From positions 33,078-97,077 of the forward strand of contig JACOXG010000010.1 of NCBI GenBank assembly GCA_016176405.1: a stretch of DNA of 64,000 bases, written 5' to 3'. The DNA is from Candidatus Daviesbacteria bacterium. GTDB taxonomy: Bacteria; Patescibacteriota; Microgenomatia; Daviesbacterales; UBA10151. Both the position numbers and the translations under genes were made by a program. Shown here piece by piece: positions 41,663-42,604 of the stretch. The notes below the pieces were generated by a model that saw nothing but the letters and a program-made list of their open reading frames with translations, did not search any database and was not told the origin of the DNA. Each line of letters begins with the position of its first letter. Positions within the stretch are counted from its first letter, which is position 1.

Positions 41663-42604
41663 ATGATTCATGTAAGATATGCCCCAAGCCCTACGGGAGA
41701 TCCTCATGTAGGAAATTTGCACACAGCTCTATTTAATTGGTTGTTTGTAAAACATTTTGGGGGGAAATTTACATTAAGGATTGATGATACAGACACTAAT
41801 CGAAATGTGCCAGATGGATTAGATAAAATTTTAGATAGTTTGGCGTATCTGGGGATGGATTTTAATGATGGCCCATTTTTTGCTTCTGATAGTTTAGACA
41901 GTCATAGATATGCCGCTGATAAGCTTGTTAATTCAGATAATGCATATTACTGTAATTGTACCAATGATGCTTTAAGGATTGCTAGAGAGTTCGCTGTCAG
42001 TAACAGAAAGGCATATAAATATAATAACCATTGTCGTGACTTAGGGCTTCGTAAAACAACGGATTCAGTTATCCGTTTTAAAATGCCATTGGATGGTGTC
42101 ACAAAATTTCATGATATGATTTATGGGGATATATGTTTTGATAATAGTCTGTTAGAGGATTTTGTAATTATGAAGTCTAATGGTTATCCTACATATCATT
42201 TAGCTACCGTTATTGATGATAATAGAATGAATATTACTCATGTTATGAGAGCCAATGATTGGATTTCAAGCACTCCAAAACATATCTGTATTTATAATGC
42301 ATTGGATTATGTATTACCTAATTTTGTTCATTTGCCATTAATTTTAGACAAGGATAGAAAAAAATTGAGTAAACGTTCTGGAGATGCTACATCAATTCTT
42401 TGGTATAGGGATAATGGTTATTATCCTGATGCCATGATTAATTTCTTGGCTTTACTTGGTTGGTCATTGGACGATAAAACAACAATTATTTCTAGAGCAG
42501 ATTTGATTAAATACTTTAGTCTAGACCGAGTTAGAAAATCGAGTTCCATATTTGATACTAACAAATTAGATTGGATTAACAAAAAGTATTCAAACATGCG
42601 ATAA
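41663..42604 (+). CDS. truncated class I glutamyl-tRNA synthetase paralog (GluQRS/YadB-like catalytic domain)
   Basis: '[36 protein letters not shown]' (HIGH region, ~ GluRS '[31 protein letters not shown]'). KMSKS is 'KLSKRSG'. At 313 aa it lacks the anticodon-binding domain. Confidence 0.65.
   Translation: [313 protein letters not shown]

Follow-up and report, generated by a model that had tools for sequence, protein, structure and literature searches.

Results

A glutamyl-tRNA synthetase core encoded in phage DNA

The DNA analyzed here, hereafter the window, is a 64-kb stretch (64,000 nucleotides, positions 33,078 to 97,077 of the forward strand) of contig JACOXG010000010.1, which measures 109,932 bp and is labelled 'Candidatus Daviesbacteria'. 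Genes of the window all lie on the same strand and include those for the large terminase (14813..16438), portal (19480..21399), head protease, ribonucleotide reductase, helicase, and exonuclease, and on the strength of the terminase and portal the window is genuine phage DNA that carries an aminoacyl-tRNA synthetase (aaRS) gene. That gene is an open reading frame (ORF) at 41663..42604 on the forward strand, running from an ATG start to a TAA stop and encoding 313 residues (GenBank MBI2020161.1). The product consists of domains 1-3 of a glutamyl-tRNA synthetase (GluRS), namely the Rossmann fold, the connective/zinc insertion, and the stem-contact fold, and it is referred to below as GluRS-N. 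The PF00749 profile (tRNA-synt_1c) matched residues 2-304 essentially end to end (profile positions 2-314 of 314, E = 1.1e-88). A first-pass annotation, made from the sequence alone, had proposed that this phage gene specifies the catalytic domain of a Glx-tRNA synthetase; the peptides it named are present in the ORF and that assignment holds. At the DNA level GluRS-N showed 100% identity between the NCBI contig and each of four Logan assemblies, which come from separate sequencing runs, and since all five agree the stop codon is real and not an assembly error. No frameshifts or internal stop codons were found in the gene.

The catalytic motifs, all on the forward strand, were located as follows. 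The HIGH motif was read from the sequence as H15-V-G-N18 (41705..41716), a form (HVGN) present in 33 of the 120 closest GluRS homologs, and the KMSKS-type motif is KLSKR (42362..42376, within KLSKRSG), which is found in all 120. The putative zinc-binding loop, C97-x-C99-x24-C124-R-D126 (41951..42040), has spacing like that of Escherichia coli GluRS (CxCx24CxH), and its C-R-D ending is shared with 40 of the 120 closest homologs. In the RIDDTD segment (41777..41794; RIEDTD in the family) D41 takes the place of a pocket glutamate; position 41 is Glu in 119 of 119 closest homologs and Asp in 4 of 132 diverse GluRS, and its equivalent in Helicobacter pylori GluRS2, E39, is an amino-acid pocket residue (PMC3439900). 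An AlphaFold2 model of GluRS-N had a predicted local distance difference test score (pLDDT) of 86.6 and a predicted TM-score (pTM) of 0.85. The gene has 32.7% GC and 24% GC at third codon positions (GC3), compared with 35.2% and 26.8% for the phage, and amelioration to the phage composition is complete.

GluRS-N belongs to canonical GluRS rather than to GluQRS or GlnRS

The bacterial GluRS equivalog model TIGR00464 matched GluRS-N with 402.8 bits (cutoff 289.95) over profile positions 2-315 of 470, whereas the five models for GluQRS (TIGR03838 and NF004312-NF004315) all stayed under their cutoffs, the best being TIGR03838 (205.9 vs 276.7). A GlnRS identity was rejected on the basis of the TIGR00440 score, 56.1 bits vs a cutoff of 425.8, and of V194 and R196, which are of the GluRS type. 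Sequence matches in the Protein Data Bank were to bacterial GluRS chains with E = 1e-83 to 1e-56, and E. coli YadB was matched with E = 9e-33. A neighbour-joining tree was constructed from 321 catalytic-domain columns with 60 bootstraps, using E. coli and Acinetobacter GluRS and GluQRS, E. coli GlnRS, three huge-phage GluRS, and ten close homologs. GluRS-N grouped with canonical GluRS in 60/60 bootstraps, with GluQRS in 0/60, and with the huge-phage GluRS in 0/60, and the split of all GluRS from GluQRS plus GlnRS as well as the GluQRS pair by itself were each recovered in 60/60.

Diagnostic motifs and structural comparison gave the same answer. GluRS-N retains YRDxGY and KLDWxN, both of which are absent from GluQRS, and GluQRS has KLSKQ with a deletion after the KMSKS motif and a much shorter zinc loop. 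In Foldseek searches the model matched bacterial GluRS cores with TMq values of 0.90-0.91, compared with 0.74-0.76 for GluQRS, which ranked 43rd-44th. The earlier proposal of a GluQRS-type paralog is contradicted by the profile scores, the tree, KLSKR, YRDxGY, KLDWxN, and the TMq values taken together, and the GluQRS-specific zinc site whose examination it had suggested is replaced by the long loop of the GluRS type. The same annotation had named, as evidence against its reading, a placement within canonical GluRS with a recent C-terminal truncation (a pseudogene); the placement was found (60/60), and the truncation may or may not be recent. The glutamate-pocket residues R5, A7, S9, Y178, V194, R196, and W200 are kept. 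In H. pylori GluRS2 the equivalents of V194 and R196, I190 and R192, set the choice of Glu vs Gln, and GlnRS has Ser and Cys at these positions (PMC3439900); because the pocket residues, including these two, are of the GluRS type, the substrate should be Glu and not Gln. The nearest named relatives are GluRS of Chloroflexota (Dehalococcoidia, SAR202) at 51-54% identity. We conclude with high confidence that GluRS-N is the catalytic core of a canonical bacterial GluRS.

The protein ends at a domain boundary and the anticodon-binding domain is missing

Residue 313, the last of GluRS-N, corresponds to residue ~321 of Thermus thermophilus GluRS and ~314 of the E. coli enzyme. The N-terminal catalytic part of GluRS comprises T. 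thermophilus residues 1-322 (PMC3927822), so the end of GluRS-N lies no more than 1-2 residues from the boundary of domains 3 and 4. The chain stops 7 residues after KLDWIN where homologs run on for 157-174 residues, and the PF19269 anticodon-binding domain (~160 residues) is not present in the ORF, in agreement with the earlier remark that there was no room for it. The likeness to GluQRS architecture drawn in the same annotation is also correct as a description: the three domains are the same, and the terminus falls in the same alignment column as that of E. coli GluQRS. This common architecture is convergent, not inherited.

The missing domain was sought elsewhere with tblastn and with a hidden Markov model (HMM) derived from the nearest full-length homologs by taking their C-terminal domains, the search reaching ~82 of the ~110 kb of the phage genome. 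Neither the 64-kb window nor its 17.5-kb flanks yielded an anticodon-binding domain in any of the six frames (best E = 0.2-0.3), and none turned up in the structural-module loci of related phages. A split gene and a decayed remnant of the anticodon-binding domain were both considered and rejected, there being no match in the window, the flanks, or the related loci. No signal of polar adaptation after domain loss was seen in the last helix.

Relatives of GluRS-N are full length

Among 5.8 billion proteins the next-best match was 54% identical and full length, and the best 150 of 27,914 matches in a set of 1.84 billion cluster representatives were essentially all 440-560 residues long. Two representatives of 326 residues each (P0188 and P0222) were discarded as short counterparts, one being a contig-end fragment and the other, which lies in a cellular neighbourhood (fmt, def, priA), stopping 27 nt before its contig end. 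The short matches P0405 and P0406 proved to be cellular gltX genes split by assembly frameshifts. No close relatives of GluRS-N were found in IMG/VR. All 22 complete viral GluRS loci in that database run 130-231 residues past the core, 21 of them matching the anticodon-domain HMM, and the GluRS of huge phages are likewise full length (490-542 residues).

One unrelated viral locus was of a different kind. On a 142-kb contig (L044; IMG/VR UViG_3300005676_000020), positions 3001-3186 encode the first ~62 residues of a GluRS at 48% identity within an ORF of 94 residues. This piece is clearly a decayed remnant, in contrast to the intact 313-residue core.

A close relative of the phage was identified in another sequencing project (L060; Logan SRR22388038, 2,393 bp), with 76-79% identity over a DUF932 gene and the ORF at 43262..43549. 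The contig stops ~700 nt short of the GluRS position. The genes between DUF932 and the ORF at 43262..43549 differ in this relative, which indicates rapid mosaic turnover beside the GluRS position. A search with the C-terminal 125 residues of GluRS-N, meant to catch a fragmentary ortholog from this relative, revealed none, and distant relatives reached through the DUF932 neighbour had no GluRS nearby.

The core has diverged under purifying selection

Conservation was assessed against 132 diverse full-length GluRS representatives. GluRS-N keeps 36 of the 39 columns conserved at ≥95% and 56 of the 62 conserved at ≥90%; the latter amounts to 90% of conserved GluRS columns, and GluQRS keeps ~70%. 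Overall, 46% of all columns differ from the consensus in GluRS-N vs 6 of the 62 conserved ones (binomial P = 6e-10), so neutral decay is rejected in favour of purifying selection. Conserved hydrophobic positions are retained at 79 of 81 sites. Judged from these sequence patterns, most of the divergence arose under selection for a GluRS-like core, and the loss of the domain is not dated thereby.

The gene lies in an apparent two-gene unit bounded by promoter-like elements

Upstream of GluRS-N, a terminator-like hairpin of 18 pairs (40895-40934) with a T-run to 40943 on the forward strand is probably where the preceding transcription unit ends. Directly after it lies a promoter-like element, TTTTCTTTCAATATAATATAATATATGTAT (40944..40973, forward strand), followed by a lipoprotein-like ORF (MVLSSMLLITAC..., 40972..41634, forward strand; placed by gene callers at start 40984), whose lipobox was recognized by eye only and which had no Pfam or PHROG match and no database family. 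A second copy of the promoter-like element, AAAAACATTTTCT-TTCAATATAATATAAT-ATCTGTAT (42603..42639, forward strand), overlaps the stop codon of GluRS-N. The two copies form a 30-nt direct repeat (40944-40973 vs 42610-42639, 29/30 identical) that brackets the two genes. GluRS-N appears to be the second cistron after the lipoprotein-like gene, given that the unit is bounded by two promoter-like elements, and from this arrangement the two genes appear to be co-transcribed from the phage promoter-like element.

The element recurs elsewhere. Its 31-nt form, AAAAACATTTTCT-TTCAATATAATATAAT, occurs at 42603-42633, 52425-52455, and 54850-54880; it contains a TATAAT box, and its copies are intergenic and lie 20-35 nt upstream of a Shine-Dalgarno sequence and start codon. 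In two cases the element directly adjoins the stop codon of the gene before it, and at GluRS-N the TAA (42602-42604) shares bases with the start of the element. An 18-nt core of the element had 5 matches vs 0.95 expected by chance. By its sequence and placement the element is probably a phage-specific promoter or a module boundary. Scans for generic sigma-70 promoters and terminators yielded no more matches than in shuffled sequence.

Downstream of the element the composition changes. A GC-richer island (42640..43250, forward strand) has 40-48% GC vs 29-31% in the 3' part of GluRS-N, a step that extends over ~600 nt immediately 3' of the gene, and it holds three small forward-strand ORFs (42667..42879, 42882..43046, and 43046..43246), the third of which matches phrog_1933, of unknown function. 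A foreign origin of the island was considered and rejected, GC3 being only weakly raised. The site of the truncation is thus also a modular junction in the phage genome, and the truncation may have arisen there either by recombination or by partial gene capture.

A phage tRNA-Gln resembles a GluRS substrate

The sole tRNA gene in the window, tRNA-Gln(UUG) at 46187..46260 on the forward strand, lies 3.6 kb downstream of GluRS-N; it was detected by ARAGORN, scored 63.7 bits with the Rfam tRNA model, and folds into a cloverleaf. The tRNA has U1:A72, G73, and an encoded CCA, together with a 4-bp D-stem containing U11:A24 and U13:G22, A46, and a 4-nt variable loop that lacks residue 47. These features match the published identity sets for GluRS (augmented D-helix) and for the amidotransferase (U1:A72). 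GluRS1 of Acidithiobacillus ferrooxidans charges only tRNAs with an augmented D-stem and a deletion of residue 47, and amidotransferases rely on U1-A72 to recognize Glu-tRNA-Gln (PMC9976931). With its D-helix determinants and U1:A72, tRNA-Gln(UUG) would look like a GluRS substrate to an anticodon-blind protein and be compatible with GatCAB. This nearby tRNA with GluRS identity elements lends support to the earlier suggestion that a phage tRNA could be charged by the enzyme. Phage codon usage is weighted toward CAA (364, vs 183 for CAG) and GAA (765, vs 353 for GAG).

Directly 3' of tRNA-Gln lies an ORF resembling an HNH endonuclease (46400..47173; phrog_1271, E = 7.5e-6), which may be a homing endonuclease in a mosaic accessory region.

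Gene content and origin of the phage

Coordinates on a 93-kb Logan contig show that another ~46 kb connects the two ends of the window, which makes the genome circular or circularly permuted with a length of ~109.8 kb. A search of INPHARED with the terminase gave no match. Given this result, and because the GluRS is closest to Chloroflexota rather than to bacteria of the candidate phyla radiation, the 'Daviesbacteria' label is probably a binning artefact and the contig a mis-binned novel phage. It is a groundwater phage with relatives in Hainich groundwater and freshwater-sediment metagenomes (L046, L050, and L057). The relatives found by the metagenome scan have only the structural module in common with it, and a scan of genome contigs with a flank protein found nothing.

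Several genes for RNA repair and translation accompany GluRS-N. An Rnl2-type RNA ligase (PF09414) is encoded at 49729..50343, RlaP (PF10127) at 60787..61083, and RtcB (PF01139) just past the window end (L016 5249-6403); this RNA-repair toolkit suggests that the phage counters host tRNA-cleaving defences. Genes for tRNA-Met(CAU) and tRNA-Ile(UAU) (L018 3486-3559 and 3947-4024) lie among replication genes ~5.3-5.8 kb upstream of the window start. Together with tRNA-Gln(UUG) they read codons that are A-ending or rare.

Further features of the window were noted. A prohead-protease-like ORF (38514..40403, with Peptidase_S78/S78_2 matches) harbours a mini-intein of ~140-150 residues, recognized by Hint and Intein_splicing matches over residues ~319-461 ('ICLPFGSK...' to '...VVHNC'). 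Thymidylate synthases of both types, ThyA (PF00303; 679..1566) and ThyX (PF02511; 1898..2680), are encoded along with dCMP deaminase (3084..3563); such redundancy is unusual, or else the set hints at modified-nucleotide metabolism. A eukaryotic-type topoisomerase IB (PF01028; 31434..33617), a Cpn60/GroEL chaperonin (48155..49726), ClpP (37763..38386), and an aldehyde-dehydrogenase-family protein (11415..12902) are uncommon in a ~110-kb phage. The segment 57001-58000, with 45.6% GC vs ~35%, a negative AT skew, and overlapping ORFs at 57219..57914 and 57253..57753, may be a recent foreign insertion.

Discussion

GluRS-N and known systems

Both phage-encoded aaRS and truncated GluRS cores are known, and what is new in GluRS-N is a canonical GluRS core without an anticodon-binding domain that is naturally kept by a phage. 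Homology to the canonical GltX proteins of T. thermophilus, E. coli, and Borrelia extends across the whole of domains 1-3, with ~42% identity to the E. coli enzyme, and the HIGH and KLSKR motifs, the CxCx24C loop, the glutamate-pocket residues, and the stem-contact-fold motifs are all present. GluRS-N differs from these proteins in lacking PF19269, in the substitutions E41D, Q74A, R77S, and A29V, and in being encoded by a phage. Its truncation point is essentially the same as that of the E. coli GluRS cores engineered by Dubois et al. (2009 Biochemistry 48:6012) and Dasgupta et al. (2009 FEBS Lett 583:2114). By its title, the former study reports that the truncated catalytic domain keeps its specificity for tRNA-Glu, and the truncated E. 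coli domain is described as selecting tRNA-Glu and retaining the parts that recognize D-stem determinants (PMC2777447). Those cores are laboratory constructs, whereas GluRS-N is a natural phage gene, 42% identical to the E. coli enzyme and located near a tRNA-Gln with the shape of tRNA-Glu. With GluQRS (YadB) it shares a three-domain architecture without an anticodon-binding domain, a similar length, and the end column, but it belongs to another lineage (0/60) and has the long zinc loop, KLSKR, YRDxGY, and KLDWxN.

Two further groups invite comparison. Huge phages encode aaRS, including GluRS, with a proposed role in charging phage tRNA variants (Al-Shayeb et al. 2020, PMC7162821), and their GluRS genes resemble GluRS-N in residing in phage genomes with tRNAs and tRNA-repair genes. 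They are full length, however, and are not sister to GluRS-N, and the present phage has a genome of only ~110 kb. The non-discriminating GluRS and GluRS2 enzymes of Thermotoga maritima, Thermosynechococcus, and H. pylori make Glu-tRNA-Gln for GatCAB, which is what we propose for GluRS-N, and to H. pylori GluRS2 the anticodon does not matter, recognition going through the acceptor stem with its U1:A72 (PMC2777447). Unlike GluRS-N, these enzymes keep the anticodon-binding domain, and this functional class is not one that can be read from sequence.

A candidate anticodon-blind synthetase

The interpretation that we tentatively favour, with a confidence somewhat short of even, is that GluRS-N is an active, probably slow, stand-alone GluRS core that is blind to the anticodon and charges tRNA-Glu and/or the phage tRNA-Gln. 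In the proposed mechanism the protein would bind ATP and glutamate in its GluRS-type pocket and would recognize tRNA through domains 1-3, contacting the acceptor end and the augmented D-helix (U11:A24, U13:G22:A46, no residue 47). Because it could not read the anticodon, no discrimination between tRNA-Glu and a tRNA-Gln of like shape is expected. It would produce both Glu-tRNA-Gln and Glu-tRNA-Glu, and the host GatCAB would turn the former into Gln-tRNA-Gln. The predicted benefit would be the translation of an AT-rich phage heavy in CAA and GAA, with GluRS-N acting as part of a translation and RNA-maintenance set that also includes the tRNAs, RNA ligase, RlaP, and RtcB.

Several observations weigh against this interpretation. 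Engineered C-truncated E. coli enzymes are reportedly orders of magnitude slower than the wild type. GluRS-N has Q74A, R77S, and A29V at near-invariant positions, substitutions unseen in the 132 diverse GluRS, the first two of which fall in the QSxR motif that is kept even in GluQRS, and by the share of conserved columns that it retains it is among the lowest 1-2 of 132. A truncated counterpart is absent from the best 150 representatives and from 24 IMG/VR GluRS loci. The gene has no Shine-Dalgarno sequence, which is also true of 24 of 53 ORFs in the phage. A recurrent modular element shares bases with the stop codon and is followed by the GC-richer island, so the truncation is possibly a by-product of recombination, and since tRNA-Met and tRNA-Ile are also present, tRNA-Gln is perhaps a member of a codon-usage set that is unconnected to the enzyme. 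Finally, the strongest determinants of E. coli tRNA-Glu reside in the anticodon loop (PMC9976931), which GluRS-N could not read.

A more specific version, which we regard as a doubtful possibility, holds that GluRS-N is a naturally evolved, active core of 'primordial style' forming a dedicated pair with the phage tRNA-Gln(UUG), a putative mimic of tRNA-Glu in all features legible to the core, and feeding GatCAB independently of the host GluRS. If such a pair existed, it might allow the phage to escape a shut-off of host GluRS or discrimination against the phage tRNA.

Alternative explanations

The strongest competitor, itself somewhat unlikely, is that GluRS-N is an inactive or barely active remnant of a full-length phage gltX or of a captured host gltX, the 3' half having been lost by recombination at the promoter-element junction and the leftover being tolerated since a stand-alone core folds and is harmless. 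The position of the stop codon within the recurrent 31-nt element, the 29/30 repeat that brackets the unit, and the compositional step right after the gene all fit this explanation, as do the unprecedented Q74A, R77S, and A29V substitutions and the retention of conserved columns at the bottom of the range. GluRS-N is moreover a singleton in very large databases in which other viral GluRS are full length, and the L044 locus shows that GluRS remnants do occur in phages. Yet neutral decay is rejected for most of the history of the gene (P = 6e-10), with a recent loss staying compatible; frameshifts and internal stops are absent, the hydrophobic core and catalytic motifs are intact, and the base composition shows full amelioration toward the phage. 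By our own estimate, moreover, a random break would fall within a few residues of the domain boundary with a chance of ~2-3%.

It is unlikely, in our judgment, that GluRS-N has acquired a new function in which it binds tRNA or a partner without canonical charging of the 3' end. Options would include a convergent GluQRS-like modification of an anticodon loop, use of another acceptor, sequestration of tRNA-Glu, or a role as a decoy for GluRS-targeting factors. Kinases of the HipA type phosphorylate GltX near the KLSKR motif. The architecture converging on that of GluQRS, down to the end column, is in keeping with such a change. So is the clustering of the unusual substitutions at residues 68-77 along with E41D, which might reflect altered handling of the substrate or acceptor and not decay, and the RNA-repair and tRNA genes suggest a conflict with the host over translation. 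Against this, GluRS-N has the GluRS form of every sequence feature by which GluQRS differs from GluRS, a partner gene is not apparent, and functions are known for none of the neighbouring ORFs. Truncated E. coli GluRS, moreover, stays specific for tRNA-Glu and gains no GluQRS activity, as far as the title of Dubois et al. (2009) and the account in PMC2777447 convey.

Still less probable is a split enzyme with the anticodon-binding module supplied in trans, either from the remaining ~28 kb of the phage or from the host. The reach of the anticodon-domain search, ~82 of ~110 kb, leaves room for this arrangement, and the title of Dubois et al. (2009) is in keeping with it. However, the window in all six frames (best E = 0.3 with the HMM), the 17.5-kb flanks, and the related-phage loci held no sequence resembling the anticodon-binding domain. 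A true GluQRS ortholog that glutamylates queuosine-34 of tRNA-Asp can be practically set aside: its length of ~300 residues, the absence of an anticodon-binding domain, and the end column shared with E. coli GluQRS would suit it, but the GluQRS models stayed under cutoff, the bootstraps were 0/60, the zinc loop and motifs are of the GluRS type, 90% of conserved GluRS columns are kept vs ~70%, and GluQRS ranked 43rd-44th in Foldseek.

Implications

Aminoacyl-tRNA synthetases are thought to have started as catalytic cores that read the acceptor end, with anticodon-binding domains being added later. To our knowledge, this core-first idea has so far been explored for GluRS with laboratory truncations and with GluQRS, whose function has changed. 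Should GluRS-N turn out to be inactive, it would be an instructive example of modular gene erosion in the accessory region of a phage. If instead it is the active, anticodon-blind core that we tentatively favour, it would provide a natural test case for the possible biological usefulness of anticodon-blind charging and for how the domains share the task of telling tRNA-Glu from tRNA-Gln. It would likewise be a test case for interference with tRNA charging by ~100-kb phages and not by huge phages alone, and the protein might serve as a compact scaffold for the engineering of orthogonal tRNA/synthetase pairs.

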